A stretch of 32,000 bases of DNA from Candidatus Methylomirabilis oxygeniifera (GCA_000091165.1 FP565575.1:1710001-1742000), one strand, 5' to 3'. Shown: positions 3,631 to 32,000, counted from the stretch's first letter. Numbers and translations are program-made. The notes: generated by a model from the sequence alone, not told the origin.

Positions 3631-4989
3631 ATGACCTATTCCCAGGCAATTACCTATCTTTACGGACTCCAGCGTTACGGCGTGAAGCTGGGTCTCGAGA
3701 ATATGAAACGGCTTCTTGGAGCCGTCGGCGATCCGCACCGTCGGTTCCCATCCGTCCTGGTCGGCGGGACCAACGGCAAAGGGTCTACCTCCGCATTGCT
3801 CTCATCGATTCTGAAGTCCGCCGGCTATCGAGTCGGGCTCTATACCTCCCCGCATCTCCTGGATTTCACGGAGCGCATCCAGGTGGACGGACAGGCCATC
3901 TCTGGAAGTGAGGTCGCAGCCCTCACCGATGAACTTCGACAGGTCATTGCCGAGCTCTTCCCAACATCCGACACCCCAAATCCCCCCGTGCCCCCCTTTT
4001 CTAAAGGGGGGGTGGGGAAATTTTGCATCTCGCACCCGACGTTTTTTGAGGTCACGACTGTCCTCGCTTTTCTCCACTTCGTTCGCAGCAAGGTAGACTA
4101 CGCGGTGGTGGAAGTAGGAATGGGGGGGCGGTTCGATGCCACCAATGTTCTCGACGCCCAGGTGGCGGTCATCACCAATATCGCCTTGGAGCACGAGGAA
4201 TATCTGGGAAAGACGCTGGGGGCAATTGCCGCAGAGAAGGCAGGGATCATCAAGGGGGCAACACGTGTCGTCACTGCCGTCGATGTCCCAGAGGCCCTGG
4301 CCGTCATTACCGACGCATGTCGAAAGCGTAGCGTGACCCTTTTCGATATCCGGAGCGCATACGACTGGCGGATTCACCGGTCAGATCTCTTCGGTCAGCG
4401 ATTCAGCATGGGTGACAAGGGGCAGCCTGCCGAAACCTTCGACATCCCCCTGCTCGGTCGACATCAGGTCGTCAATGCGATCGCTGCCATTGCAGTATCC
4501 CGACTTCTCCGGACCGCCGGCGCCGCCATCCCGGAGAGTTCGATTCGAGAAGGCTTATGTCGGACACGATGGCCTGGCCGTCTTCAGCTCTTTCCCGGTC
4601 GGCCCCTTCTGATCCTAGATGGCGCACACAATCCGGCGGGCGCCATCGCGCTACGCGCTTTCCTTGAAGAGCAACGGTTTGCCGGTCGGTTGACTCTCGT
4701 GTTCGGCGTGCTGCAGGATAAGAACTGGATCGCGATGCTGCAAGCGCTGGCGCCGCTGGCAAAACGGGTCATCCTCACGCGCCCGGAGAGCGAGCGCGCA
4801 GCGGATCCGCATCGTCTACTGGAAGCCGAACGCTTCTGTCCGAAGATCGAGATCCTTGAAGATGTAGCCGAGGCGATTGCGTTGGCCAGGACAGTGACCG
4901 ATCCGGAGGATACGGTCGTCATCACCGGTTCGCTCTTCGTCATCTCGGCGGCTCTACGCGCGCTCGGAGCACAGGGGGAGCAGACATGA
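3631..4989 (+). CDS. folC: Bifunctional folylpolyglutamate synthase / dihydrofolate synthase
   Basis: N-terminus YLYGLQRYGVKLGLENM, P-loop VGGTNGKGST, Mur-ligase-type middle and C-terminal domains (DGAHNP). Confidence 0.9.
   Translation: MTYSQAITYLYGLQRYGVKLGLENMKRLLGAVGDPHRRFPSVLVGGTNGKGSTSALLSSILKSAGYRVGLYTSPHLLDFTERIQVDGQAISGSEVAALTDELRQVIAELFPTSDTPNPPVPPFSKGGVGKFCISHPTFFEVTTVLAFLHFVRSKVDYAVVEVGMGGRFDATNVLDAQVAVITNIALEHEEYLGKTLGAIAAEKAGIIKGATRVVTAVDVPEALAVITDACRKRSVTLFDIRSAYDWRIHRSDLFGQRFSMGDKGQPAETFDIPLLGRHQVVNAIAAIAVSRLLRTAGAAIPESSIREGLCRTRWPGRLQLFPGRPLLILDGAHNPAGAIALRAFLEEQRFAGRLTLVFGVLQDKNWIAMLQALAPLAKRVILTRPESERAADPHRLLEAERFCPKIEILEDVAEAIALARTVTDPEDTVVITGSLFVISAALRALGAQGEQT
3991..4011. 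repeat. Homopolymer palindrome CCCCCCTTT-tct-AAAGGGGGG (9-bp stem, 3-nt loop) inside folC
   Basis: Read directly from the sequence. It translates in frame as PPFSKGG within ...PNPPVPPFSKGGVGKF... Confidence 0.7.
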
Positions 4990-5094
4990 GACAATTTTGT
5001 TGCTATGGGAAGGTGTGGTAGCATTGCATACTCGACACTATGATCCACCATCCAGACACAGTGGAGACCGCCACCTGAAAACGGGTGCTCACAC

Positions 5095-6483
5095 ATGAAC
5101 GATCTCTGTACGGTAATCTTGGCGGCCGGCCAGGGAACCAGGATGCGCTCGAAGCTCCCGAAGGTGGTGCATCCGGTAGCCGGTCTGCCGATGATCACCT
5201 ATGTCGTCGAAGCGTGCCGCTCCCTCCAGGCGAAGCGAACCCTTGTGATCACCGGCCACCAAGCCGACAGGGTGAGAGAGGCTATGGCGGGCGAGGTCAC
5301 CGAATTCGTTCACCAACCGGAGCAACACGGGACGGCTCACGCTCTCCTGCAAGCCCATGAGGCCCTCGCCGGCTTCGACGGCGATCTCCTGGTCGTGTCA
5401 GGGGATACGCCGCTCCTCACCTCACAGACCCTCGACGGTCTGCTGCGGGCGCACCGTGAGGCTCGCGCGTTGGCTACCGTGCTTACGGCTGAGGTGGCTG
5501 AGCCAATCGGCTACGGGCGGATCATACGGTCTACGACGGGGGAACTCCTACGAATCGTTGAGGAGTTGGAGGCCACACCACAGGAGCGGAAAGTTCACGA
5601 AATCAACGCCGGGGTCTACTGCTTTGCCGCGCGAGCGCTTTTCGAGGCGCTGCAGGCGATTCGTCCCTCTGCCGTCAAGGGCGAACTCTATCTTCCTGAC
5701 GCTATCGCACTGCTGCGGGATCGGGACGGAGGCGTACAGGCGTACCGAGCGCTCGACCCAGACGAGGTGCGAGGGGTCAACACTCGCGCAGAGCTGGCTG
5801 AGATCTACCGCTTGCTCTGGCGAAAAACCGCTCTGCGGCTGCTCGCTGAAGGGGTCACCTTTCTCGACCCCGAGCGTACCTACGTCGGCCCGTTCGTCAG
5901 GATCGGTCCCGATTCGATCCTCTATCCGAACGTGACGCTCGAAGGGCAAACGGTGATCGGAGAGGCGACCACAATCTACTCAGGCTGTCGGATCCGCAAT
6001 TCGACAATCGGCAATGACACCGTTATCCTGGATGGATGCATTATCCAGGAGAGTCAGATCGGCGACGAGTGCCAGGTCGGGCCATACGCACATCTGAGAC
6101 CCCACGCTCAGCTCCGACAACGGGCCAAGGTTGGAAACTTTGTCGAGGTCAAGAAGTCGGTCGTCGGCGAAGGGTCAAAGGTCCCGCACTTGAGTTACAT
6201 CGGCGACACCACCATCGGAGAGCGTGTCAATGTCGGCGCCGGGACAATTACGTGTAACTATGACGGCTTTACCAAGCATCAGACCGTCATCGAGGACGAC
6301 GTGTTCGTAGGCAGCGATGTGATCCTCGTGGCGCCGGTCTCAGTGGGACGCGGCGCGATCATCGCCGCCGGTTCGACCATCACCGAGAATGTACCGCCTG
6401 ATGCACTGGCATTCGGTCGGGCACGGCAGGTCAACAAGAGCGGCTCTGCTGGGGCATTTCGGTCCAAACACCGAAAGGGGTAA
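5095..6483 (+). CDS. glmU: Bifunctional UDP-N-acetylglucosamine pyrophosphorylase / glucosamine-1-phosphate N-acetyltransferase
   Basis: N-terminus VILAAGQGTRMRS.LPKV.H, a nucleotidyltransferase domain, and a C-terminal left-handed beta-helix with hexapeptide repeats (NFVEVKKS..G.GSKV.HLSYIGD). Confidence 0.95.
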   Translation: MNDLCTVILAAGQGTRMRSKLPKVVHPVAGLPMITYVVEACRSLQAKRTLVITGHQADRVREAMAGEVTEFVHQPEQHGTAHALLQAHEALAGFDGDLLVVSGDTPLLTSQTLDGLLRAHREARALATVLTAEVAEPIGYGRIIRSTTGELLRIVEELEATPQERKVHEINAGVYCFAARALFEALQAIRPSAVKGELYLPDAIALLRDRDGGVQAYRALDPDEVRGVNTRAELAEIYRLLWRKTALRLLAEGVTFLDPERTYVGPFVRIGPDSILYPNVTLEGQTVIGEATTIYSGCRIRNSTIGNDTVILDGCIIQESQIGDECQVGPYAHLRPHAQLRQRAKVGNFVEVKKSVVGEGSKVPHLSYIGDTTIGERVNVGAGTITCNYDGFTKHQTVIEDDVFVGSDVILVAPVSVGRGAIIAAGSTITENVPPDALAFGRARQVNKSGSAGAFRSKHRKG

Positions 6484-12968: not shown

Positions 12969-14387
12969 CTAGCCCATCCGCTCGATGACTGCCGTGGCGA
13001 ACTCTGAGCACTTCAGCTCCTTGACGTCGGTTGCCCCCTCAGCGCGCAGCAACCTGGCAAAGTCATAGGTGACCTGCCTCCGACCAATAGTCTCCTCCAG
13101 CCCACGGACCACCAGATCCGCCGCCTCGTTCCAGCCGAGGTGTCGTAGCATCATCTCACCGGAGAGGATCACCGAACCGGGATTGACCTTATCCATATCG
13201 GCGTATTTCGGCGCCGTCCCATGAGTCGCCTCGAAGATCGCGTGACCGGTGCGATAGTTGATATTTCCCCCTGGAGCAATCCCTATCCCGCCGATCTGGG
13301 CGGCAAGCGCGTCTGAAAGATAGTCGCCATTCAGGTTCAGCGTCGCGATCACGTCGAACTCATCGGCCCGTGTCAGGGTCTGCTGCAGTGTAATGTCGGC
13401 AATCGAGTCTTTGATCAACAGCTTGCGCCTCCACTGTCCATCGCCATGCGTCGGCCACAGCGCGAGGGCGGCCTCGACCTCCTCGCGAACCTTCGCCCGC
13501 CGGTCAGGCGTCATATCTTTGTAGCCGGGATCAATGGCCAGTGCATTCTCCTCAACCGTGAGGTTAGGTGTCCGCTCTTTGTTGTCGAGAACCCAGCTCT
13601 CTCGAAGGCTGACCGTCTCGTGACGGTATCTGCCGGCCGCCAGCGCATACCCCCAGTCCCGAAATGCGCCTTCTGTGAACTTCATGATGTTGCCCTTGTG
13701 CACCATCGTCACAGACCTGCGCTGGTGTCTGAGGGCGTACCGAATCGCAGCCTCGATCAGCCGCTCGGTCCCTTCCCGGCTGACCGGTTTAATCCCGATT
13801 GCCGAACTCTCCGGGAAGCGGATCTTCGTGACCCCCATCTCATTCTGCAGGAAGCGGATGACCTTGCCGACCTCCGGCGATTGCGCCTCCCACTCGATCC
13901 CGGCGTAGATGTCCTCGGTGTTCTCCCGGAAGATTACCATATCGACCTGTTCGGGGCGCTTCACGGGGCTCGGGACGCCGCGAATGTACCCGACCGGCCT
14001 GAGACAGACATACAGGTCGAGGAGCTGGCGAAGCGCCACATTCAAGCTTCGTATGCCGCCACCGACTGGCGTCGTCAGCGGTCCCTTGATCCCGACCACA
14101 TACGTACGGAAGGCCTGAACAGTCTCTTCAGGCAGCCAGGTCTTAAGGGTATTGAACGCCTTCTCGCCTGCGTAGACTTCAAGCCAGGCGATACGGCGCT
14201 GCCCGCCATAGGCGCGTTTCACTGCTGCATCAAACACGCGGACCGAGGCGCGCCAGATATCTCGTCCGGTCCCGTCGCCCTCGATAAAGGGGATGATCGG
14301 ATCGTCCGGAACGATCAATCGACCATCTTCCACGGTGATCGTATGACCCTCTTGCTGCGATTGAATCCCTTCCCACTGTTTCATCAT
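12969..14387 (-). CDS. icd: Isocitrate dehydrogenase (NADP-type homodimeric family)
   Basis: Motifs [71 protein letters not shown] and KCSEF closely follow E. coli Icd as I remember it. Confidence 0.9.
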
Positions 14388-20127: not shown

Positions 20128-21102
20128 TCAGGAGGTCAGGAACAGGCAAAATTGATCCTGAGGATCGGTAAAGCGACCAAGGACCTGAAAGCCGTGGCGG
20201 GTGAGCAGCCATTCCATTCCCGACCGGGAATACTTATGACAGTTTTCTGTATGGATGGTTTCACCCTGTCGAAGATCGACATCAAGGTCCAGATCGGCGA
20301 TCCTCACGCATTGATCGCGCAGACTGACCAGGTGCATCTCGATCCGGCTGCGCTCGTGATTCCACACTGCCCGATGTCGAAATGTCGCCGGATCGAAGTT
20401 TGCGGATAGCTCCCGGTTGAGCCGCACCAGAATGTTCAGATTGAACTGTGCAGTCACACCTTGGGCGTCATCATAGGCGGCTTCCAGGACGGCCGGGTCT
20501 TTGATCAGGTCGACGCCAAGCAGCAGCCGGTCTATCGGACGCAAATGACGACGGAGCATCGTGAAAAACCCGGCGATCTCGTCCTCCGCAAAGTTGCCGA
20601 TAGTCGAGCCCAGAAAGGCGACCAGCCTGGGGCTGCTCGCGTCTGTTGCGAGGTAGCCCAGCCCATCCTCAAATTCGGCCGCGACCCCCACAACGCACAG
20701 GCGCGGGTAGTCATGCAAGAGCTGTCGCGTCCCGTTCTCCAATCCGGCGGGTGAGATATCAACGGCGTAGTAGGTAAGCTCCTGCTGTCTGGCCAGACAA
20801 GAGTCGATCAGATATCGGATCTTTGTGGAGCTGCCGCTGCCAAGCTCGACCAGCGCAAGATCCAGTGGACAATGCCCGATAATGGAAGCAGCATCTCTCT
20901 TGAGAATCGCGGTCTCGGTTCGCGTCAGATAATACTCGGGCAGCTCGCTGATCTGCTCGAACAGCGCGTTGCCTTCAGGATCATAGAAATATTTACATGG
21001 AAGCCGCTTCTTCGACGCGGTCAGCGCCTGTCGGACTTCCTCAGCCAACGTACTCTGAGCATGCCTGAGCGCAATGCCGGTATATCGTTCATCGTCCATC
21101 AC
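20128..21102 (-). CDS. egtD: EgtD-like L-histidine N-alpha-methyltransferase (hercynine synthase family)
   Basis: LPCKYFYDPEGNALFEQISELPEYYLTRTETAIL...LVELGSGSSTKIRYLI closely parallels mycobacterial EgtD (LPPKWFYD..GS.LFD.IT.LPEYYPTR.E..IL...LVELGSG.S.KTR.LL) as I recall it. Confidence 0.8.
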   Translation of the reverse strand: MMDDERYTGIALRHAQSTLAEEVRQALTASKKRLPCKYFYDPEGNALFEQISELPEYYLTRTETAILKRDAASIIGHCPLDLALVELGSGSSTKIRYLIDSCLARQQELTYYAVDISPAGLENGTRQLLHDYPRLCVVGVAAEFEDGLGYLATDASSPRLVAFLGSTIGNFAEDEIAGFFTMLRRHLRPIDRLLLGVDLIKDPAVLEAAYDDAQGVTAQFNLNILVRLNRELSANFDPATFRHRAVWNHERSRIEMHLVSLRDQCVRIADLDLDVDLRQGETIHTENCHKYSRSGMEWLLTRHGFQVLGRFTDPQDQFCLFLTS

Positions 21103-21584: not shown

Positions 21585-21671
21585 GCCGGGGTGGCGGAAC
21601 TGGGAGACGCTCGGGACTTAAAATCCTGCGGGCTTCGGCTCATGCGGGTTCGACTCCCGCCCCCGGCACCA
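21585..21671 (+). tRNA. tRNA-Leu (anticodon UAA), CCA encoded
   Basis: Manual cloverleaf. Acceptor GCCGGGG/CCCCGGC. Anticodon arm CGGGA-CTTAAAA-TCCTG (anticodon TAA). Long variable arm. T-arm GCGGG-TTCGACT-CCCGC. Discriminator A plus CCA. Confidence 0.9.
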
Positions 21672-21710: not shown

Positions 21711-21750
21711 AAAAAAAAGAGTTAGGCGAAATCGCCTAGCTCTTTTGATT
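21711..21750. terminator. Bidirectional rho-independent terminator-like hairpin (A8 - 12-bp stem - T-rich tail)
   Basis: AAAAAAAAGAGTTAGGCG-aaat-CGCCTAGCTCTTTTGATT. The 12-bp stem has one G.U pair and is flanked by an A-run and a T-run. Confidence 0.5.
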
Positions 21751-21898
21751 GTCTTGGTTGCGGGGGAGGGATGTTTTCAAACCGTTAGCCTTGCACCCAC
21801 TGAAGAATTAGTAACTTAGCTGCGCCTAAGAAATAAGTATAGCCCAATTCTGTAAGAAAACAATAGCTAATTTTCAGAAAGTAAGTTACGTCAAGCTT

Positions 21899-21946
21899 AA
21901 CGTTCAGGCTGTCAACCTTAACGTCGCAGACATTACGCTGAACGTT
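21899..21946. repeat. Perfect 9-bp inverted repeat AACGTTCAG ... CTGAACGTT (30-bp spacer) inside a cluster of TTAACG-like words
   Basis: Read directly from the sequence. Related words: gcTTAACGTtc (21895), ccTTAACGTcg (21917), gccTAACGCgc (21969), ttTAACGCca (22350). Confidence 0.6.
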
Positions 21947-22257
21947 GAGTCCGAACTTCTTAGCCAAGCCTAACGCGCCCACTCGCTCCTTTCTGGCGCA
22001 AGCAGTGCGCCTCTCTCTCGCTCGATCGCATCATCTCGATAGGCCGCGTCCCCCTTTGGTCGTCGTATAGTCCCACGGTCTCCTCGTTCGTTGCCTTGTC
22101 ACCCTCTTCCACGAAAATGGTGAGAGAGAGGAGCTACCTAAAATCAGTCACACTAAACAAAAAGCAGAGCAGATGTCAGCATAGGTCAATACTGTTCCTA
22201 AGTGCCTGGAGAAATAGTTAGTCTTGTAACCATGTGAAGATTTATTTAAAATGAGTG

Positions 22258-22286
22258 TTGACTTCTGAATCGCGATGTTTTATATT
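22258..22286 (+). promoter_or_regulatory. Candidate sigma70-type promoter TTGACT-N17-TATATT for the four-gene module
   Basis: Near-consensus -35 and -10 hexamers with a 17-nt spacer, ~120 bp upstream of the 22409 ATG in AT-rich DNA. Confidence 0.35.
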
Positions 22287-22408: not shown

Positions 22409-23176
22409 ATGCGTTTAAAACAGGTCAAGATCCCCTCCTTTGCTTTTGATAGCCACTCCAAACTGGCCACCTACCCGAAGGCTTTGGCGTCAGACGGTCA
22501 GATCGTTACCTCTGGGGCGATGGACGTCCTTCTGCATGTGGCCAAGCACCCACCCACATTTGCAATGATCGATGGCCAAACCTACCTCATTTCTAACCTC
22601 CTAAGCTGGCATCTCATCCGGGAGGTACTCGACCGCAATGAATTCGTTGCAGCAATCTGCGATCCCTCGGAGTGCTCGCAGCACGCCGATGTCGAGCGTT
22701 TTGCTCGCTACGACGATGCGCTGCATATCGGACTTGTCAGGACACATACTTCAGCCGCCAAGAGCAGGCCCACTGACACCCGGAAACGGCACTTAGAAGC
22801 AGGACAGATTTGTCCAGTGTGCATCAATTACAGATCGGACAAGGTCAAGCCCCTCGAAGTGCCCATGTCTACTGATCAAAACTGGCGTGCTGTCCGTGCT
22901 CGGGGGCTCGACGGTATAGTCAAGTGTCACCGATGCAGATTCAGGCTCACGCTCAGCCATGAGGAATATAGCCGCTTTCTTGTCTACAGCCTTTCCACGT
23001 CCGAAATCGTCACCATGCGGCTTGACGGGAATCAGCCCGTGATCTGTCCCGTTTGCGCAGCACGAGGCAGGCGCGGGATCGTCCTGATGCGCTGGCACGA
23101 CGATTGTATAGTAACGCGTTGTTCTCACTGCCTCTATGATTTTGAGGCGTACTCGCTCCGCGCCGAGGCGGCATGA
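22409..23176 (+). CDS. Module gene 1: hypothetical protein with two CxxC...CxxC zinc-ribbon motifs
   Basis: 255 aa. C135-P-V-C138 ... C173-H-R-C176 and C213-P-V-C216 ... C238-S-H-C241. The N-terminal ~125 aa are unassigned. No obvious SD. The stop overlaps the next start (ATGA at 23173-23176). Confidence 0.6.
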   Translation: MRLKQVKIPSFAFDSHSKLATYPKALASDGQIVTSGAMDVLLHVAKHPPTFAMIDGQTYLISNLLSWHLIREVLDRNEFVAAICDPSECSQHADVERFARYDDALHIGLVRTHTSAAKSRPTDTRKRHLEAGQICPVCINYRSDKVKPLEVPMSTDQNWRAVRARGLDGIVKCHRCRFRLTLSHEEYSRFLVYSLSTSEIVTMRLDGNQPVICPVCAARGRRGIVLMRWHDDCIVTRCSHCLYDFEAYSLRAEAA

Positions 23177-25020
23177 ATCAGAATTATGTACTGACAGAAT
23201 TCCTCAATCGCACCGGCACTCGCACAGCTACTGAAACCTCTTACTGGAATAGTAATATCATCACCCACATTCGACCGCACCTACTCAACGCCCTGTCCGG
23301 ATTACCAGAGCACACGGTCAGACGCTGGCTTTGGGCACTTCTCAGCGCTGCTGACGTACCTTTCGAGTGTGAAGGGATTCTCGCAGGTGAGCATGTCCTG
23401 CGATATTTAGTCGACCGGCATCTCTCATCCACGCTCTCACTAACGCGCATTAACGCCCGCTCCACAACAGTTTCGTGGCAGCCCAACCCGCTTGACCCGA
23501 CAATTCCACACCAAGTTCTTGATGCACTCTTTCATGCCCTTCGCGGATTATCGCCCGAGCGCACGGCACCTCTCAACAGGCGTCCGCCTCAGAGGGAGGG
23601 AGAGATTTGGTCGTTTTACCTCCAAGCGTTCCCGTTCGGGAAAAAATGTCCCTCCGCACTGCTGTTCGCGACCTGCGGAATCCTCTTGGGTCTGCGACTT
23701 CAACTCTACCACCGGAATGAGCCAGAAACGCTCAAGTGGTACGCAACTGCAGCACGAATGTTGTTTAAGTACTTCAACCACAATAGACTCACCACTCCGA
23801 TTCAGCCACTCAACCGAAAAGACTTCCTGGCGATTGTTGAGTGGAGCCTCCAAGCTCTTACCAAGAACCTCCGGCGGAGCAATGATCCCAAAGCATTACG
23901 CGAACTATACCGCGTTCGCCTCAAGCGACTCTTTGACGGCCATCAAGCCAAAAAACACCCCCATGTGGGGCCAACCAAGAACAACATCAAGACTCCAGAA
24001 CCGGCGATAGCCTCCTACGAACATCGTCCCATGGACGACCTTCCCCCAGAGATGGCCGGCGATGATCCCGCTGCAGCGTCCCTCAACCCGTTACACATTG
24101 ACGAATGCGTCGGTTATGATACAGACGACGATGACGGCACAGCGGGCGATACTGTGATACAGGAGCGTGATCTCGCCATTCATCGCTCCGCGATCTATAC
24201 GCAACCCCCGACCCAGGACGTTGTCCCGCGTAAGCCCTCCCTCTCGTCGAGCGACGTATCACGCTTTATCCTTCACCAATTTCCCTTCTGGTGGGATCCT
24301 CTCCGTGGCGGGATTGGACCACACCGGTTGATCGCTTGGCATAGACAGATCGACGCATGGCTTCAGACCGGCGTCGCAGATGGCCGCCTCTTGGTTCCAC
24401 CCCTTTCCATGTACTACGGCTGGGCTGGGTTCGCCATCACTGAGATTCAGGTAGCTTCCTATCCCACTGACGAGGATGCTCCTACAATTCCTCGGGACTG
24501 CTTCCTCTTCGATCCGGTCCGATGGCTCTTTTTTTACTACCAGCAGACACTCCAAGGACGCTCCTCCTTCATCCCGAAGTCACCAGATGGGTGGAGGCCA
24601 TCGACTCGCTGGATTGCCGTCCCGGTCGCTCCTAGACTTTCACCACTTCTCGCAACTACCCTGAAGTTTCTGGATGCGCACAACGCCCTCGTCGAGGGAG
24701 CCTCGCTCCTGCAGATCCTTACCAGAGATGGAACCCTCACGCCGCTGACGCCACGCCGATTCAAACAGATCCATCGCTCAATACTGAAAAAGACTCAACG
24801 AGACCTGCCGACACCTCCTGCCCTCGCCAGAGCGTTTCATCCGCTTATCACTACCCTGTGCGGACTAGATGAGGTAAGCGCCCGCTACCTCTCACGCCGC
24901 ACGATCACTCGGGGATTCGTCCAATCTCACTATACCCACCTGACTTTCGATCGCTTCTTCCAGGTATGCTACCAGGCCTGGAACATCTTGGACAAATGGT
25001 TGTGCGGGTTCATGGAATGA
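23173..25020 (+). CDS. Module gene 2: large tyrosine-recombinase-like protein with a degenerate catalytic set
   Basis: 615 aa. The C-terminal ~210 aa align by eye to the integrase catalytic domain. GFAITEI (Ala at the Arg-I position); ALARAFHPLITT (Arg-II kept, preceding His lost); YLSRRTITRGFVQSHYTHL (Arg instead of His-III, Tyr in a classic YTHL context). Acidic low-complexity linker at ~aa 285-330. Confidence 0.65.
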   Translation: MNQNYVLTEFLNRTGTRTATETSYWNSNIITHIRPHLLNALSGLPEHTVRRWLWALLSAADVPFECEGILAGEHVLRYLVDRHLSSTLSLTRINARSTTVSWQPNPLDPTIPHQVLDALFHALRGLSPERTAPLNRRPPQREGEIWSFYLQAFPFGKKCPSALLFATCGILLGLRLQLYHRNEPETLKWYATAARMLFKYFNHNRLTTPIQPLNRKDFLAIVEWSLQALTKNLRRSNDPKALRELYRVRLKRLFDGHQAKKHPHVGPTKNNIKTPEPAIASYEHRPMDDLPPEMAGDDPAAASLNPLHIDECVGYDTDDDDGTAGDTVIQERDLAIHRSAIYTQPPTQDVVPRKPSLSSSDVSRFILHQFPFWWDPLRGGIGPHRLIAWHRQIDAWLQTGVADGRLLVPPLSMYYGWAGFAITEIQVASYPTDEDAPTIPRDCFLFDPVRWLFFYYQQTLQGRSSFIPKSPDGWRPSTRWIAVPVAPRLSPLLATTLKFLDAHNALVEGASLLQILTRDGTLTPLTPRRFKQIHRSILKKTQRDLPTPPALARAFHPLITTLCGLDEVSARYLSRRTITRGFVQSHYTHLTFDRFFQVCYQAWNILDKWLCGFME

Positions 25021-25832
25021 TCGACATGATGCCGCGGCCCTCACGGGGCGACACTCCACGCGATCGACTTGTCCTGTCTGTCCCGCCGCCTGGCGGTTTC
25101 GGATCGCCGGTCGTCCGCACGACGGCGGCCACGCGGGATATAATTCTGCAACTCGAAGATACGATTATCCGGACAGCCAAGCCCTGGAATCGAGAGGACG
25201 TTTTGATCCACCATACAAGCATGACCGCTTACACCATGCTTGCGGTTTTTCACCTGGGCATCCGCCCGCGCAACACGCCGCATATAGGTGGAGCGGACTT
25301 GACCGGCGCCACCGCCCACTGGGTAATACAAGACAAGAGCAGCAAGATCTACTTTGAAGAGCGTCTCCTGTATGTCCCACCAGTCGTTGTCCACCTAGTC
25401 CAACAACTCGGGACGTTTCGAGGGCGGCTGGAGCGTGAGATTCTGAATCACCTCGGCTCTTCTGCCATCGCCCGACTGCCGGCAGATCCCTTATTCTTTT
25501 TCGATACAACTGGGTCGGTAGTCCCGTTTTCTTTGAAGGCATTCTGGGCGGCGCTTTGTGCGTTACCTATCGGGTTCCCGGCCGACACGCCGAGAAACTT
25601 CGGCCGCCACTGGCTTCGCACCCGACTCGCCGAAGACGGCGTCGCGGATGACCTGATGAACATGTGGTTTGGTCACACCGCGGCCGGTCGCGAACCGCTC
25701 GCCAATCACGCCAGTACGTGTTACGGACCCGCCCTGGCTCAACTCAGAGACAGAATTGCCGAATATTTACGAGAACTCGGCTTCAAGCATCTTGAATATT
25801 TCCGCCCCACAACAAGGAGGAGGTTCCTATGA
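25017..25832 (+). CDS. Module gene 3: short tyrosine recombinase (essentially catalytic domain only)
   Basis: 271 aa from the ATG at 25017, which overlaps the gene 2 stop (ATGA). HLGIRPRNTPHIGGADL (Arg-I), IQDKSSKIYFEERLLYVPP (Lys strand), NFGRHWLRTRL (N-x-x-R-H in place of H-x-x-R-H), FGHTAAGREPLANHASTCY (His-III, Tyr). Confidence 0.7.
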   Translation: MIDMMPRPSRGDTPRDRLVLSVPPPGGFGSPVVRTTAATRDIILQLEDTIIRTAKPWNREDVLIHHTSMTAYTMLAVFHLGIRPRNTPHIGGADLTGATAHWVIQDKSSKIYFEERLLYVPPVVVHLVQQLGTFRGRLEREILNHLGSSAIARLPADPLFFFDTTGSVVPFSLKAFWAALCALPIGFPADTPRNFGRHWLRTRLAEDGVADDLMNMWFGHTAAGREPLANHASTCYGPALAQLRDRIAEYLRELGFKHLEYFRPTTRRRFL

Positions 25833-28132
25833 CGACCCCCGCCACCATGGATGATGCAATCAGTGATCTCGCCGCTCGCATGGATCGAAGGAGCCGCCAT
25901 GGCGAATCGATCGCCAAGGCTTGGTGGCGCATAAGGCTGCGAATCTTGGCAATACCGATCGGTTCCGACGGTATGCGACACCTGGCAGACGATGATGTCC
26001 GGGCCCTCTCCGCGCGCTTAAGTAAGCCGGATGACCCCCGAGTTCATCGTATTGAGCAAGACAAGCGTCTCAACGATATCCTGGCCGAACTCCAGCTCCA
26101 CAAGTTCCTGAAAAGCCCATTTATGAATCATCCGGTCCAGGTTCCTCGGCATCTCCTCCTCACCCTCGACGACCTCGACCCCGCAATGATCGAACGCGCT
26201 CAGAATTTCCGTCAACGCCTTCACGGCCGCTCGATGTTGCGACCTCCCGCAACTTGGCCGAAAAATGAGGAGGCGCTCTGGCACTTCTGTGTCTTCCTTG
26301 CCTCCCTCATCCTTGATACCGGCGTCCTCTTCCCGCAGATCCTCGGTGTTGTCCTCCATCTTGTCCATGAAGACTTCACCCCTGCGGGAACAATTAACCT
26401 TCCGCGCCGACGTCAGCGACGCGGCAAGCGTCCCATCGAAGCCACCGTCCGCCGAAGGCTCCACCCGGTGACAGTGCGGGCCTATACACGCTTCCAGCAT
26501 GCGCGTAGCCCCTTCCGTAAGGTGGGTGCCCCTTCAAAGACCGCTTTCGTGTGTCCTGACGAGTGGCGAACCCCAGAATGGATGCGTCAGGTCTTCCCGT
26601 CCCGATTGTGCGCCTTTCTCAACGCGTGTGACGCCCCCACAAAGCCCTTCAGCCCACGGCACCCCTTGAGGCAGCTCATGCGCTACGGCGCCGTGACGGC
26701 CGTCTTACGTGGCATCCCACCGTTTATCATTGATACCGCCATTGGGAATGTTCTCACGAGACTCGTCACCCCCAACAGCTACCGACGTATCTTTGAGAAC
26801 AAGCCACCGGCATGGATTCTCAACGCAGCCAAGGCCCCTGGCCCCGCTCGCCGTGGGCGAATCTCCGCTCGGACACGTATTCAGGGCACGGGCCTTGAAC
26901 TCTTCGAGAAGCTTGAGGCGCTCCGCTCTCGCCTGCGCCACAGTGAGGACAGTCGGAAAGCGCGGGATGCGTTTATTGATGAGATCACATCCCTCATTGG
27001 ATCCACTCCATTCCAGCCGATTCCAGGCCCGCTGACCCAAAAGGCGATCTTTGAAGCGAACGCCAGGATGTTCGGAGGCTTCATCGCGTTTCTTCTCCGA
27101 AGCAAAATTAAGATCAGTTCGGTGCTCACCCGGACCTCGGCCATCGCCGCCGCCTTCCCCGATCTCTTCGGCTCCAAGACTCTGTGGGCTTGGTCGGCCA
27201 GCGATTATACGAAGGCGTTACATTTCGGGATGGAGGAGCACGAAACTGATCACTTTCGCATCGCACTGAAGTGGCTCGTAGCTTTCCTGCATGACTTAGG
27301 GATTTCTACCCCGCGGATCTCCTGGTGCGATGACAATCTGCAGGAACCGCTCATCGTCACGCCTGCTCCGTTGGTGGGATTTAATGACTTCGACCGGGCC
27401 TTCGACACCTGCTTCATGCTCGACACCATCCCCGACGAACTGCGAGAGCTTCTTCAGATCATGCTCATCTTGGGTTTCTGGGTCGGCCTCCGCGCCAAAG
27501 AGGCATCCCTCCTGACTCTCCGCCATTACCATCCACATCCATTCCATCTGATTGAAGTGCGACACTCTAAGTTCCCGACCAGCACCAGGGATATGTACCT
27601 CCAATACATCGTCGCGCTGCCGTACCTCATGCGCCTCAACGCGTGGTACGCCAAACGTCTGGACGAGGCGAACGGCAATCTCGATGCGCCCCTTTTGGGA
27701 ACCGGCCGGAAGATGCGCTCTGCCTCCAAGAATCCGTTAGGCTTTTATGATTCCAGCTACCTCTCGGGACTGGCCGGCCTCGTCCTCCGATGCTCCATCG
27801 GCGAGCCGATATCGTTTCATGGCCTGCGTCATGCATTTGCGTCCTGGCTCCTCTTACGACTCCTCGCGACGGATCGTCGGATCACTGTCAAGCGCTCAAT
27901 ATACCCATGGGCGTCGCCGCTCGCATTTTCATCGGAGGCCTACGATTGCCTACGGCCGCTGCTGCATGGATTCGGTACGCCAAAACCCGGCCAATCGGAA
28001 TGCTCACACATCCTCATGGCGCTCTGCCGGTTGGTCGGTCATGCCAATCCGACGACAACGCTGGAAGAGTACTGTCACACCGTTGACGTGGCCCACGCGC
28101 TCATCGAGAGCCACTTGAGGGGTCGCGGTTGA
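25829..28132 (+). CDS. Module gene 4: giant tyrosine recombinase with complete catalytic signature
   Basis: 767 aa. SD AAGGAGGAGG lies 6 nt upstream of the ATG, which overlaps the gene 3 stop (ATGA). GLRAKEASLLTL (R555), FHGLRHAFASW (H664, R667, H668), LVGHANPTTTLEEYCH (H738, Y748). SAM-like core-binding-type helix FRIALKWLVAFLHDLGI at ~aa 476-492. The first ~430 aa are unassigned. Confidence 0.8.
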   Translation: MTTPATMDDAISDLAARMDRRSRHGESIAKAWWRIRLRILAIPIGSDGMRHLADDDVRALSARLSKPDDPRVHRIEQDKRLNDILAELQLHKFLKSPFMNHPVQVPRHLLLTLDDLDPAMIERAQNFRQRLHGRSMLRPPATWPKNEEALWHFCVFLASLILDTGVLFPQILGVVLHLVHEDFTPAGTINLPRRRQRRGKRPIEATVRRRLHPVTVRAYTRFQHARSPFRKVGAPSKTAFVCPDEWRTPEWMRQVFPSRLCAFLNACDAPTKPFSPRHPLRQLMRYGAVTAVLRGIPPFIIDTAIGNVLTRLVTPNSYRRIFENKPPAWILNAAKAPGPARRGRISARTRIQGTGLELFEKLEALRSRLRHSEDSRKARDAFIDEITSLIGSTPFQPIPGPLTQKAIFEANARMFGGFIAFLLRSKIKISSVLTRTSAIAAAFPDLFGSKTLWAWSASDYTKALHFGMEEHETDHFRIALKWLVAFLHDLGISTPRISWCDDNLQEPLIVTPAPLVGFNDFDRAFDTCFMLDTIPDELRELLQIMLILGFWVGLRAKEASLLTLRHYHPHPFHLIEVRHSKFPTSTRDMYLQYIVALPYLMRLNAWYAKRLDEANGNLDAPLLGTGRKMRSASKNPLGFYDSSYLSGLAGLVLRCSIGEPISFHGLRHAFASWLLLRLLATDRRITVKRSIYPWASPLAFSSEAYDCLRPLLHGFGTPKPGQSECSHILMALCRLVGHANPTTTLEEYCHTVDVAHALIESHLRGRG

Positions 28133-28390
28133 TCTTCGCCAGCCATCCTCTGGCATCTTGGGAGAGCGGTTGGGTAACGGCAACATGAGCCGCCAGCACT
28201 TGCCCTGTCGTCTCCATCACGACAGTGAAGAAGTTTCTTGCGAACTGCTGAAGAACACCATAGAATCCGCCCTAGACTCTATCCGAACACTCCCCTGTTC
28301 ACACGAGGGACGTAAGGCTGGTGATCTTGCCCGACATCGCGTAAGATTGCCTTATCTCGTTCGCACGATGAAGGGTAGGTCGAGATAACG

Positions 28391-28681
28391 ATGCCGGATA
28401 CTGGGAGTACAGGTCATCGACAGCGGTTGCGGGATCGCTTCGCGAGTGGCGATCAAAGCTTTCGCTCAGAGGGATCCCTGCTTGAGCTTCTGCTGACCTA
28501 TACGATTCCGCAAAAGGACGTACGGCCGCTCGCCAAGCACCTGCTCTCGGAATATGGCAGCCTCTCCTCCCTGCGGGCTACGCTCCATTGCAGCGCCGAA
28601 CAGACCCGGCATCGCTACGCTCACGACTTCCTACACACGAACCTGATGGCCAAACATTCTCTCGGGGAGATTTGGGAATGA
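28391..28681 (+). pseudogene. RadC-like N-terminal fragment (no JAB/MPN domain)
   Basis: GHRQRLRDRFASGDQSFRSEGSLLELLLTYTIPQKDVRPLAKHLLSEYGSLSSL matches the conserved RadC N-terminus. Similarity is lost after ~60 aa and the ORF ends at 96 aa (full RadC is ~220 aa). Its stop overlaps the next ATG (ATGA at 28678-28681). Confidence 0.55.
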
Positions 28682-28998
28682 ATGACAACAGAGAAAAAGC
28701 AGCACCCCGCACCACTACTGAAACCATAGTGCGACGAATAGCCGACATGCAAGAGGAGCTGCGGGAGCGGTTTACCGTAATCCGCATCGGTGTCTTTGGA
28801 TCTTTCGCCAGAGGGAGTCAAACTCCGGCAAGCGATGTGGATATCATCGTGGAGTTGGCCGAACCGACCTTCGATCACTACATGGATCTCAAATTCAGAT
28901 TGGAAGATGTCCTGGGCCGCCCGGTAGACTTAGTGATCGCGGACACCGTAAAACCTCGCCTGAAACCGATTATTGCGCAAGCAGTGGTCTATGCCTAG
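28678..28998 (+). CDS. MNT-type nucleotidyltransferase antitoxin (MntA-like)
   Basis: GVFGSFARGSQTPASDVDIIVEL is the GSxxRG...DxD minimal nucleotidyltransferase motif. 106 aa. Its stop overlaps the start of the HEPN gene. Confidence 0.85.
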   Translation: MNDNREKAAPRTTTETIVRRIADMQEELRERFTVIRIGVFGSFARGSQTPASDVDIIVELAEPTFDHYMDLKFRLEDVLGRPVDLVIADTVKPRLKPIIAQAVVYA

Positions 28999-29353
28999 AG
29001 ATTTTCGTCTTTATCTGGATGACATCCTGGAAGCGATATCTCAGATCAGAGCATACACCGAATCCATGGATTATGACGCATTCATGCGGGACCGTAAGAC
29101 GCAGGATGCCGTAGTGCGCAACCTCGAGGTCATCGGCGAGGCGGCCGGATGTCTGCCGGAATCTATCCAGACAGGCGCTGGAGATATTGAATGGCGGAAA
29201 ATCGTGGGGATGCGCAATATCCTGGCGCATGAGTATTTTGGTGTGAGCCTTCCCATAGTCTGGGATATCGTGCAAAACAAGTTGAGCCCGCTCGATGCTG
29301 CCTGCCGAAAACTGCTTGAGAGTGATTCGACCCCTTCAAAGGAACAGGAATAA
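28991..29353 (+). CDS. HEPN-domain (DUF86) toxin (HepT-like)
   Basis: 120 aa starting MPRDFRLYLDDILEAI. Rx4H motif RNILAHEY. Overlaps the MNT stop (ATGCCTAG). Confidence 0.85.
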   Translation: MPRDFRLYLDDILEAISQIRAYTESMDYDAFMRDRKTQDAVVRNLEVIGEAAGCLPESIQTGAGDIEWRKIVGMRNILAHEYFGVSLPIVWDIVQNKLSPLDAACRKLLESDSTPSKEQE

Positions 29354-29999: not shown

Positions 30000-30197
30000 A
30001 CCAGGAACACGCACATAGTATCCTCCGTCACTGAATGATAGGGCGAGACCCGGAAGCGATTTATGTGGTACGCTCAAACGATGAGGAAGGCGAGGGGGGT
30101 GAAATCAGATGCTCCTTCCTATCCCCCGCAAAAGGGGTGCTATATCATGCTCTCCGACAGGAAACGGAGTATCATGTCGAGACATGGAGGGAAGGTC

Positions 30198-30347
30198 ATG
30201 AGATTGATGGTGGAACAACAGACATATCCGTACATCACGACGAATCGGAGAATCGCGGGGGGCTCCCCCATCATCAAGGGGACCCGCATCACCGTCCGTA
30301 CTATCGCCGGCTACTACCAGATGGGAATGACTGTCGACGAGATATGA
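30198..30347 (+). pseudogene. DUF433-family gene, N-terminal part (cut off by IS insertion)
   Basis: GGAGG lies 6 nt upstream of the ATG. YPYITTNRRIAGGSPIIKGTRITVRTIAGYYQMGMTVDEI matches the DUF433 core (IT.dp....G.P.I.GTRI.V..I......G.s..EI). It ends at a TGA that is part of the IS junction. Confidence 0.6.
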
Positions 30348-30378
30348 CTGTCAAGACCCCCATTTTCTGTACCAGGTG

Positions 30379-31284
30379 CTATGAGAGTATCGGTTCCAGT
30401 TGGATGTTCAACTCGTCCTCCCAATGGTGGAGATCGGACGCTGTCGTGTCATCGAGCACAGAGGTAACTGGATGAGGCTGACGCCATGCGTGCTCGGTCG
30501 CAAACTCTGCCGGGGTGCGATAGCCCAGAGCACTGTGCGGCCGCTCGTGGTTGTAGCTCAGGCGGTACTGTTCGACGAGCACCTGCGCCTCGGTCACACT
30601 CGAGAAGCTCTCTCGGTTCAAGAGCTCGTCCTCGAAGCGGCTATTGAACGACTCACTGTACGCGTTCTCCCAGGGGCTTCCGGGTTCGATGTAGAGGGTC
30701 TGAACCCTCGAGAGGGCCAACCACTCCTTGACGGCGGTCGCGACGAACTCGGGTCCGTTATCGGAGCGGAGGTACGTCGGCTCGCCATGTACCCGGAACA
30801 GCGAGGCCAGCAGTTCGACCACATCCTCGGCCCGGATGCTGCGGGCTACCAGGATTGCGTGCGCCTCTCGAGTAAACTCGTCCAACACCGGCAACAGCTT
30901 CAGCCGTCGCCCGTCTTCCGTCTGATCCATCAGGAAATCGTAGCTCCAGACATGGTTCTTGTGCTCGGCACGCCGGCGTCGACAGCCCTGGTCGCTGCTG
31001 CCCAGGCGCTGCCGTTTCCGTTGCGCCTGCGGCACGCGAAGCCCCCCTTGTCGCCAGAGTCGCTGCACCCGTTTCCGATTCACGCGCCACCCTTCCCGCT
31101 GCAAGAGCGCCCAGACCCGCCGATACCCGTAGCGCGGATGACGTCGCGACAGCATGACGAGCCGCTCGCTCAAGGCCTGGTCCCGCTCCCGCTTGCGTCC
31201 CACAAACCGCTGGCTCGACCGCGGCTGGCCAAGCACCCGGCATGCCCGACGCTCGGCGACGCCCAGCCGCTGCCGCACATGCAC
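30379..31284 (-). CDS. IS3-family transposase OrfB (DDE / rve integrase domain); probably made as an OrfAB fusion
   Basis: HPRYGYRRVWALLQREGWRVNRKRVQRLWR, WSYDF, LRSDNGPEF and SPWENAYSESFN are typical IS3 OrfB motifs. The frame stays open upstream of the listed GTG start (GKLLSPTRRRAAVVHV...) back to the slippery site. Confidence 0.85.
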   Translation of the reverse strand: MHVRQRLGVAERRACRVLGQPRSSQRFVGRKRERDQALSERLVMLSRRHPRYGYRRVWALLQREGWRVNRKRVQRLWRQGGLRVPQAQRKRQRLGSSDQGCRRRRAEHKNHVWSYDFLMDQTEDGRRLKLLPVLDEFTREAHAILVARSIRAEDVVELLASLFRVHGEPTYLRSDNGPEFVATAVKEWLALSRVQTLYIEPGSPWENAYSESFNSRFEDELLNRESFSSVTEAQVLVEQYRLSYNHERPHSALGYRTPAEFATEHAWRQPHPVTSVLDDTTASDLHHWEDELNIQLEPILS

Positions 31285-31310
31285 GACAGCGGCCCGCCTC
31301 CGGGTCGGGC

Positions 31311-31589
31311 TCAGAAGTTTCCCTTCGTCACCTCGCGCAGGATACTGAGGTCGACCGCCTGCTCAGCGACGATCTTCTTCAAGCGCGCATTCTCTTTTTC
31401 GAGCGCCTTCAGCCGCCTCGCCTGGCCCGCCTGCATGCCCCCGTACTGGGCGCGCCAGCGATGGAAGGTGTTCTCGCTGATCCCTAAGGTCTTGCTCACA
31501 TCGGCGACGGTGGCGCCTGTGGCCAGGTGGGCGTCTGCGTCGCGCAGCTTCCGGATGATCTGCTCCGGGGTGTGTCGCTTCCGTTTCAT
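31311..31589 (-). CDS. IS3-family transposase OrfA (HTH)
   Basis: MKRKRHTPEQIIRKLRDADAHLATGATVADVSKTLGISENTFHRWRAQYGGM...LKALEKENARLKKIVAEQ is the classic IS3 OrfA: HTH plus leucine zipper. Confidence 0.85.
   Translation of the reverse strand: MKRKRHTPEQIIRKLRDADAHLATGATVADVSKTLGISENTFHRWRAQYGGMQAGQARRLKALEKENARLKKIVAEQAVDLSILREVTKGNF
31317..31323 (-). other. Candidate programmed -1 ribosomal frameshift heptamer G GGA AAC joining orfA and orfB
   Basis: On the minus strand, ACG AAG GGA AAC TTC TGA. Slipping -1 on G_GGA_AAC gives GKLLSPTRRR..., continuous with OrfB. This fits the X XXY YYZ pattern. Confidence 0.5.
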
Positions 31590-31660
31590 GGAGAGTCCTC
31601 CTGCCCGTGTGGGCGGTTGAGACTCCCATAATACCTGGATCTATTTTAGGGGGTCAGGTC

Positions 31661-31843
31661 ATGACCACCCTACAACACCTGTCGCCGTCACAGGTCCATT
31701 CAGCGTTAGCTTACTATTTCGACCATCAGAAGGAGATCGATCGCGAACTGGAGATCTCGTCTGATGTCAAACGGTGGAAACAACAGGTCGTTCCGCATCC
31801 CAGAGCGGCGACCACGCAGCAGCCAGCTCAACAGACTGCTTGA
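31661..31843 (+). pseudogene. DUF433-family gene, C-terminal part (downstream of IS)
   Basis: MTTLQHLSPSQVHSALAYYFDHQKEIDRELE matches the DUF433 C-terminal helix pattern (yP.Lt.e.i.aALaYy..h..Ei). Confidence 0.55.
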
Positions 31844-31928
31844 TCCCACCACCCACTCCGTTACGTTAGAGACACTGACCCGCGCGGCCCACGCCGTCGA
31901 ACGTCGGGTGAAGCTGGAACTGGTTTAG
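31764..31928 (+). pseudogene. Remnant of an XRE/HTH-type antitoxin-like gene (C-terminal ~45 aa)
   Basis: A 54-codon ORF below the track cutoff. ...RSSQLNRLLDPTTHSVTLETLTRAAHAVERRVKLELV resembles the helix-3 and C-terminal tail of XRE-family antitoxins. The N-terminal helices are missing and the ORF overlaps the DUF433 tail in another frame. Confidence 0.3.
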
Positions 31929-32000
31929 GACGCAAATATGCCCACTCTTGCCCAACGAATTACTGTCGCCTGCGCCAACCGACCGTTCAGCGCCTCAATG

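Follow-up and report, generated by a model that had tools for sequence, protein, structure and literature searches.

We analysed a window of 32,000 nucleotides from Candidatus Methylomirabilis oxygeniifera (GCA_000091165.1, FP565575.1:1710001-1742000); "window" refers throughout to this whole stretch, and coordinates are counted from its first letter unless another locus is named. The window contains a block of four overlapping genes (genes 1 to 4), in which gene 4 is identified by profile matches as a large tyrosine recombinase (YR) and gene 3 is very probably a second, catalytic-domain-only one. The block probably serves as the recombination module for integrative mobile elements of a family not yet described; it would be a heteromeric YR machine that excises and integrates the island in which it lies. 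Related loci that we compared with the window carry L-numbers; among these, L023 is the GInt (genomic island with three integrases) of E. coli IAI1 and L026 is a Desulfuromonas genome.

A conserved cassette of overlapping genes

The first-pass annotation had described four same-strand open reading frames (ORFs) of 255, 615, 271 and 767 aa joined by three ATGA stop/start overlaps. We confirmed this layout, with the overlap present at 3/3 junctions. Gene 3 has an alternative, longer ATG start at 24966; we favoured the start at 25017 because the homologues in L005 and L003 share the same ATGA junction. Comparing the window with L003 and L005 (77-92% protein identity), we obtained dN/dS values of 0.19-0.35 for each of genes 1-4 (0.26 for gene 1 and 0.26-0.28 for gene 2), which indicate that all four are under purifying selection and are therefore real genes. 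The genes also co-occur elsewhere, as a gene-neighbourhood comparison proposed with the first-pass annotation could reveal: at least 10 independent metagenomic lineages show the cassette in synteny. It spans NC10, Desulfuromonas and other metagenomic lineages (several phyla), and in every lineage examined the small, middle and large genes follow in that order, overlapping or almost abutting. We found no covering family for genes 1-3 in Pfam, NCBIfam, PHROG or PADLOC, and genes 2 and 3 did not match the standard integrase models.

Gene 4 consists of a ~400-aa N-terminal extension without a recognised fold, followed by an Xer-like core-binding and catalytic region. The full catalytic set that had been read in it (R555, K581, H664, R667, H738 and Y748) proved invariant or near-invariant in an alignment of the 23 family members. 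On its own, gene 4 matched integrase models only weakly (PF00589, E = 0.009; phrog_1 integrase, E = 4.2e-6). The gene 4 family profile matched XerA (4a8e, E = 2e-8) and XerH (E = 1e-5) in the PDB, and relatives of gene 4 passed PF00589 (30-50 bits) and aligned to XerC/XerD models over both the core-binding and the catalytic parts. These results identify gene 4 as a large YR of the PF00589 superfamily. An exhaustive profile search of 1.84 billion cluster representatives returned 465 relatives at E <= 1e-3 and 25 at E <= 1e-30; most relatives are 750-1200 aa long, and the large recombinases within cassettes range from 767 to 1043 aa. We performed tblastn with gene 4 against plasmids and found no match, and a protein identical to gene 4 is named "site-specific integrase" at NCBI. 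Proteins identical to those of the window are on record under the name Candidatus Methylomirabilis oxyfera. Two variants of the gene were seen in related loci. In L005-L009, which represent several independent samples, a frameshift breaks gene 4 into ORFs of 485 aa and 269 aa (4171-5628 and 5612-6421) while genes 1-3 are intact. In L011, a 45-nt tandem duplication (13098-13187) in the gene 4 homologue repeats the peptide "QRQWIALPQHTP" in the N-terminal extension.

Gene 3 is without a core-binding domain of its own. A near-complete set of YR residues had been claimed for it; the domain in fact carries a full set (R83, K107, H198, R201, H220 and Y236) with the spacing of classical tyrosine recombinases, and across 11 divergent sequences there is no variation in Arg-I, Asp-Lys, the first His of HxxR or Gly-His. 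A gene 3 profile matched the C-terminal domains of the middle proteins of L025 (E = 5e-20), L024 (2e-13), L026 (1e-13) and L027 (2e-8; all scaled to a million sequences). The homologous C-terminal domains of L024 (E = 2.3e-5) and L026 (E = 0.0043) in turn matched PF00589 in register over ~140 profile positions. Because these distant homologues match PF00589 in the same register, YR identity extends transitively to gene 3, which is very probably a catalytic-domain-only tyrosine recombinase. When we compared gene 3 with the gene 4 family using hhalign, the result was not significant, and only box I and the Lys hairpin aligned in register. In an AlphaFold model of concatenated genes 2 and 3, the gene 3 region was the sole well-predicted part (pLDDT 70-89); Foldseek returned no significant match in the PDB or BFVD.

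Gene 2 comprises a helical N-terminal domain (~aa 1-260), an acidic low-confidence linker (~aa 260-350) and a YR-like domain (~aa 385-615). This last domain is degenerate: of the catalytic set only Tyr587 is conserved, and it is invariant in 11/11 sequences. The box-I-like motif, YGWDR or GWDR in the closest relatives, reads GWAG in the window, where the box-I Arg is lost; further on, TPPALARAF replaces the HxxR box and LSRR replaces LGH, with HYT next. In the low-confidence AlphaFold model, the predicted order of helices and strands in the C-terminal region follows that of a recombinase catalytic domain, and hhalign paired the gene 2 domain with the gene 3 domain in the expected register (E = 7.7e-4, 25% probability). 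The pairing suggests, but does not prove, that the two domains are a tandem duplication.

The border between genes 2 and 3 differs between clades. The two products are 615 and 271 aa in the window and 543 and 336 aa in the L001/L004/L013 clade, and a 70-codon piece containing the HYT tyrosine is the C-terminus of gene 2 in the former and the N-terminus of gene 3 in the latter. Both arrangements use an ATGA overlap, with the two borders lying 70 codons apart. One naturally fused protein, P0010 (850 aa), spans 99% of the concatenated gene 2+3 query, and the middle gene is fused, at 786-906 aa, in six more distant lineages (L011, L024, L025, L026, L027 and L029). These comparisons indicate that genes 2 and 3 are one ancestral middle gene, of which the window carries a derived, split form. 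Given the fusions and the two split borders, the ancestral unit is therefore a three-gene cassette of a small gene, a middle gene and a large recombinase. The four-gene module of the first-pass annotation stands as a conserved, co-oriented and overlapping set, but its count of genes does not.

Gene 1 encodes an N-terminal domain without a recognised fold and two zinc ribbons of the form CxxC...CxxC (C135/C138...C173/C176 and C213/C216...C238/C241). The double zinc ribbon had been noticed before, and conservation bears it out, with the ribbon cysteines kept in 5-6/6 homologues. Pfam zinc-ribbon matches were weak, and a gene 1 profile found nothing significant in the PDB. Homologues occur in L001, L004, L005, L013, L011, L029 (E = 3.6e-13) and L025 (E = 6.6e-6), and in L024, L026 and L027 the first gene of the cassette encodes a different small protein. 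Gene 1 probably binds DNA. A ParB-N-like N-terminal domain was also considered because a ParB_N gene adjoins the cassette in L011; we rejected it after hhalign against that neighbouring ParB protein gave E = 0.46.

The neighbours of the cassette are usually defence genes and mobile-element genes; insertion sequence (IS) elements and toxin-antitoxin genes are among them, and as a whole they are of the sort that genomic islands commonly carry. For example, Thoeris-like TIR genes and a methylase are found beside it in L001, a DISARM-like helicase/PLD/methylase set in L011, NACHT, an IS element, BREX genes and DUF433/DUF5615 in L013, and a classical integrase and a TraI_2/HD protein in the Desulfuromonas genome. 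L001 and L013 have only the 6.7-kb recombinase block in common, with unrelated DNA on both sides, a pattern in keeping with a block that moves, or with one lying at a border prone to recombination. No relative turned up in two scans of GTDB representative genomes, and a metagenome scan returned one locus that was already known.

Comparison with known recombinase systems

The nearest precedents are SE (strand-biased circularizing integrative elements, intA-tfp-intB-srap; Idola et al. 2023, PMC10214605) and GInt (ginABCD; Bardaji et al. 2017, PMC5385486). In both, attL x attR recombination depends on four proteins: an ordinary YR, a large YR, a YR-fold protein lacking catalytic residues and a small auxiliary (PMC10214605, PMC5385486). 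SE and the cassette share this parts list, and in both the genes are operonic and lie at one end of a cargo island without conjugation genes of its own. However, the cassette places its auxiliary first, and in it the pseudo-recombinase and the ordinary recombinase go back to a single ancestral protein, as two of its domains. The auxiliary is a 255-aa zinc-ribbon protein rather than the coiled-coil Srap of ~140 aa, and the size of the large YR (767-1043 aa) is a further difference. SE occurs only in Gammaproteobacteria, whereas the cassette occurs in NC10, Desulfuromonas and other lineages. Gene order and host phylum thus place the cassette outside SE, from which it is set apart by description. 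GInt also consists of four overlapping genes, with two YRs, a YR-like protein with a partial catalytic set and a small accessory protein; the four are co-transcribed, all are required for excision and integration, and the island, whose cargo varies, has them at its 5' end. In GInt the small protein closes the A-B-C-D order (400/434/624/128 aa in E. coli IAI1). GinA and GinB pass the standard integrase models, none of which is matched by genes 2 and 3, and our gene 4 family profile gave only a generic box-I match to GinA. Order, sizes and sequence all differ, then, between the cassette and the E. coli IAI1 GInt.

The first-pass annotation had judged that the genes fit neither RIT nor Tn554, and gene order and protein sizes uphold this (for Tn554 by description). 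Tn554 resembles the cassette in combining an ordinary YR, a large YR and a small accessory protein (TnpA, TnpB and TnpC), which act jointly in site-specific transposition (PMC10214605). It differs in being without a pseudo-recombinase, in its small TnpC, which comes last, and in its Firmicutes hosts; the order in the cassette is accessory, pseudo-YR/YR, large YR. TnpB has ~630 aa. RIT elements likewise have three adjacent, co-oriented genes of tyrosine-recombinase type. RitA, RitB and RitC are complete recombinases of ordinary size with standard domains, and the elements have long flanking inverted repeats and are not known to carry an accessory gene. The cassette differs in its protein sizes (615, 271 and 767 aa), two of the proteins missing standard models, in a gene 2 without the catalytic set, in the origin of genes 2 and 3 from one ancestral gene and in its additional zinc-ribbon gene. 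Flanking or terminal inverted repeats were found in none of the window, L001, L013 and L011.

XerC/XerD and Flp provide further points of comparison. Gene 4 relatives align best with Xer models, and XerC/XerD is a precedent for two recombinases that each exchange one strand pair. In Flp, a Tyr is donated to the active site of the neighbouring subunit, which would fit the invariant Tyr of the degenerate gene 2 domain, a conjecture in the present case. The cassette proteins are much larger than Xer or Flp, have tandem domains and are accompanied by a zinc-ribbon protein; the cassette is found in islands, whereas Xer serves chromosome maintenance. Our searches of the library of papers open to search found no description of this cassette. 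The earlier suggestion of an undescribed multi-subunit machine is right insofar as no named family matched, and needs qualifying insofar as the parts list is already known from SE and GInt: the kind of machine is not new, and the family and architecture are.

Only a few multi-protein YR elements are known (Tn554, SE and GInt); they come mainly from Firmicutes and Proteobacteria, and understanding of them is poor. The cassette appears to be a further family of the same general design, unrelated in sequence to GInt and set apart by description from Tn554 and SE. It adjoins defence systems yet is invisible to current annotation, as three of its four proteins match no family; if mobile, it would show where genomic islands that otherwise go unrecognised begin and end. 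The fused and split forms of the middle gene, together with the complementary retention of catalytic residues, provide a natural experiment on how pseudo-recombinase domains might work in recombinase complexes.

Proposed mechanism and alternatives

We propose a mechanism modelled on XerC/XerD, Tn554 (TnpA/B/C), SE (IntA/Tfp/IntB/Srap) and GInt (GinA-D). The middle unit (genes 2 and 3) and gene 4 would bind different half-sites at the element ends and form a heterotetrameric synapse, in which each kind of subunit would exchange one strand pair. Where the middle gene is split, its product would be made as two translationally coupled polypeptides. The degenerate domain of gene 2, and gene 1 as a DNA-binding helper, might aid site recognition, assembly or directionality. 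The island would then be excised as a circle and integrated site-specifically, carrying a cargo of mostly defence and toxin-antitoxin genes.

Several results weigh against a mobile element driven by a heteromeric recombinase. Of the profile and structure comparisons that had been suggested for all four proteins, those of gene 4 point to a YR, and those of genes 2 and 3 gave no direct match: direct searches of gene 3 (Pfam, NCBIfam, PHROGs and PDB profiles) returned no significant YR match, gene 2 matched nothing in Pfam, NCBIfam, PHROG or the PDB, and a profile of genes 2 and 3 together found nothing significant in the PDB. The YR set that had been read in gene 2 is indeed degenerate, with Tyr587 invariant and even the box-I Arg of its closest relatives missing from the window, and the C-terminal domain, assigned from motif register and hhalign, plausibly has a YR fold. 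Evidence from fold prediction is weak: the AlphaFold2 models had a mean pLDDT of 49 for concatenated genes 2 and 3 and of 40 for gene 4, the latter too poor for a fold search, and the top PDB neighbour in Foldseek among 350,542 chains, Cre, was not significant (E = 2.1). The gene 3-type domain of L024 and L027 has neither the Tyr nor Arg-II, and therefore strand exchange by two enzymes cannot hold family-wide; in such lineages gene 4 alone could be catalytic. BLASTP of genes 1-4 against the E. coli IAI1 GInt found no significant similarity. The first-pass annotation had also supposed that the module mobilises an island, and this claim is not borne out by direct signs of movement: we found no element ends, att repeats, empty site or circular junction, a search for a duplicated tRNA 3' end or for inverted repeats at the termini was likewise negative, and the left-end motifs (described below) did not recur. 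A comparison with genomes lacking the block had been proposed, but a look-up of a flanking 89-aa protein returned only M. oxyfera contigs that carry it, and all recovered M. oxyfera contigs do so, with no presence/absence polymorphism seen.

One alternative keeps the recombinases and dispenses with the mobile element: the cassette might be a resident site-specific recombination system, such as an inversion or phase-variation switch or a resolution system, acting on the neighbouring defence island. Tyrosine recombinases are also known to drive inversions and dimer resolution, the cassette lies nearly always beside defence genes, often in the company of a divergent Xre-type regulator, and the failure to find terminal repeats or empty sites would suit such a system. 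We nevertheless regard it as unlikely, as no inverted repeats surround any neighbouring segment and the neighbours are wholly different between lineages while the cassette is conserved. Moreover, known invertases and resolvases each consist of one small protein, in contrast to a three-protein set that includes an 800-aa enzyme, and the nearby IS elements, second integrase and TraI_2-like protein fit mobile DNA. Another alternative is that the copy in the window is a decaying relic, the split of genes 2 and 3 a frameshift in a once single gene and the module non-working in Methylomirabilis. Against it, L003 and L005 (77-92% protein identity) keep this split, exact ATGA overlap included, and L001, L004 and L013 keep a different, clean ATGA split. 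Some degeneration is visible: the fused gene is the ancestral state, the window has lost the box-I Arg of gene 2 (GWAG in place of the GWDR of its closest relatives) and the accompanying regulator gene, gene 4 is frameshifted in L005-L009, and an IS element and indels are found in the neighbourhood. With dN/dS of 0.19-0.35 for every gene, both halves of the split included, and all catalytic residues of genes 3 and 4 intact, we consider decay very unlikely.

It is about as improbable, in our estimation, that gene 4 is the sole recombinase and works with unrelated partners, genes 1-3 (such as regulators, a scaffold or a factor that targets DNA), whose YR-like motifs are coincidental. Coincidence would have to account for the two independent, distant homologues of the gene 3 domain that match PF00589 over ~140 positions in the same register, for the canonically spaced Arg-I, Asp-Lys, HxxR His and Gly-His that are invariant in 11 divergent sequences, for the hhalign result in which gene 3 pairs with gene 4 at box I and the Lys hairpin and for Cre being the top structural neighbour, although the lack of significant direct profile or structure matches for genes 2 and 3, the non-significant Foldseek scores and the family members without Tyr and Arg-II in the gene 3 domain all speak for it. 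A heteromeric recombinase module thus remains the reading that we prefer. A more specific form of it, which we put forward tentatively and think rather doubtful, is a new multi-phylum class of integrative elements (small accessory, tandem middle protein and a YR of ~800-1000 aa) in which the middle protein has a composite active site. The degenerate domain, which has lost Arg/His/Arg/His and has kept its Tyr invariant in 11 lineages, would donate this Tyr to the adjacent domain, as in Flp; the adjacent, gene 3-type domain always keeps Arg-I, Lys, His and Gly-His, and its own Tyr is often missing. That the 70-codon, Tyr-bearing piece can be encoded on either polypeptide would fit a module docking between the two domains.

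Flanking DNA and neighbouring genes

The coordinates of the four genes and of other features in the window are given in Table 1.

Table 1. Features of the window discussed in the text
Feature	Position	Strand	Details
tRNA-Leu(TAA)	21585-21671	+	738 nt upstream of gene 1
Terminator-like hairpin	21715-21746		3' of tRNA-Leu
Conserved non-coding block	21758..21952	+	blastn and alignment: L005 (79% identity, L005 positions 71-265), L004 (positions 22-85)
AACGT motif copy 1	21896-21907	+	CTTAACGTTCAG; 12-13 nt motif, read from sequence
AACGT motif copy 2	21917-21929	+	CTTAACGTCGCAG; read from sequence
AACGT motif copy 3	21938-21949	-	CTCAACGTTCAG; read from sequence
Promoter-like TTGACT-17-TATATT	22258..22286	+	123 nt upstream of gene 1; consensus scan 10/12, consensus match only
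Gene 1	22409-23176	+	255 aa
Gene 2	23173-25020	+	615 aa
Movable 70-codon piece	24808..25017	+	gene 2 aa 546-615, includes HYT Tyr587
Gene 3	25017-25832	+	271 aa
Gene 4	25829-28132	+	767 aa
Gene 4 catalytic domain	27341-28129	+	~aa 505-767
IS3-family orfB	30379-31284	-	
IS3-family orfA	31311-31589	-	

The island had been thought to be linked to the tRNA-Leu upstream of gene 1, which was the sole find in Rfam. We found no support for this link. Similarity to related loci begins only at 21758, which is 87 nt beyond the tRNA and 11 nt beyond the terminator-like hairpin; the left edge of the conserved block there reads TTGCGGGGGAGGGATG. None of the other loci examined has a tRNA near the cassette, so lying next to a tRNA is not characteristic of the system. 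Taken as its reverse complement, the T-arm of the tRNA bears a loose likeness to the left-end sequence, which we judged too weak and did not use. The conserved block is a candidate left boundary or control region. All three copies of the AACGT motif, two direct and one inverted, lie inside it; copies 1 and 2 are largely kept in L005, and the window contains no further copy elsewhere. These copies are a candidate protein-binding or recombination site. An EgtD-type histidine-specific methyltransferase gene (20128-21102, minus strand; PF10017, E = 8e-110) and an ABC transporter are found just upstream of the tRNA, and the DNA to its left is ordinary chromosomal context. Two short M. oxyfera contigs (L021 and L022) end within ~12 nt of the gene 1 start codon (at window positions 22421 and 22399), which may reflect strain heterogeneity or an assembly break.

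In distant lineages the cassette is preceded by a divergent Xre-type helix-turn-helix (HTH) gene (L011 7004-7981 and L025 464-1552, both on the minus strand). This gene decays among the closer relatives: a truncated 231-aa relative is found in the L001 clade (L001 5653-6348, minus strand), a remnant in L005 (363-500, minus strand) and none in the window.

Downstream of gene 4 lies a nucleotidyltransferase/HepT toxin-antitoxin pair of MNT-HEPN type (28381-29065 and 28588-29353), and the first 685 nt of this region are missing from L005, which is otherwise collinear. Further downstream, an IS3-family insertion sequence (HTH_Tnp_1 and rve; 30349-31661) interrupts a DUF433 antitoxin-like gene. L005 and L013 do not have the IS3 interval, and in them intact DUF433 and DUF5615 lie side by side. 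The DUF433/DUF5615 DNA is ~90% identical between the window (30158-30348 and 31662-31932) and L013 (15327-16359), compared with only ~62-70% for the recombinase genes, and these comparisons indicate that the cargo is a mosaic, exchanged separately from the cassette.

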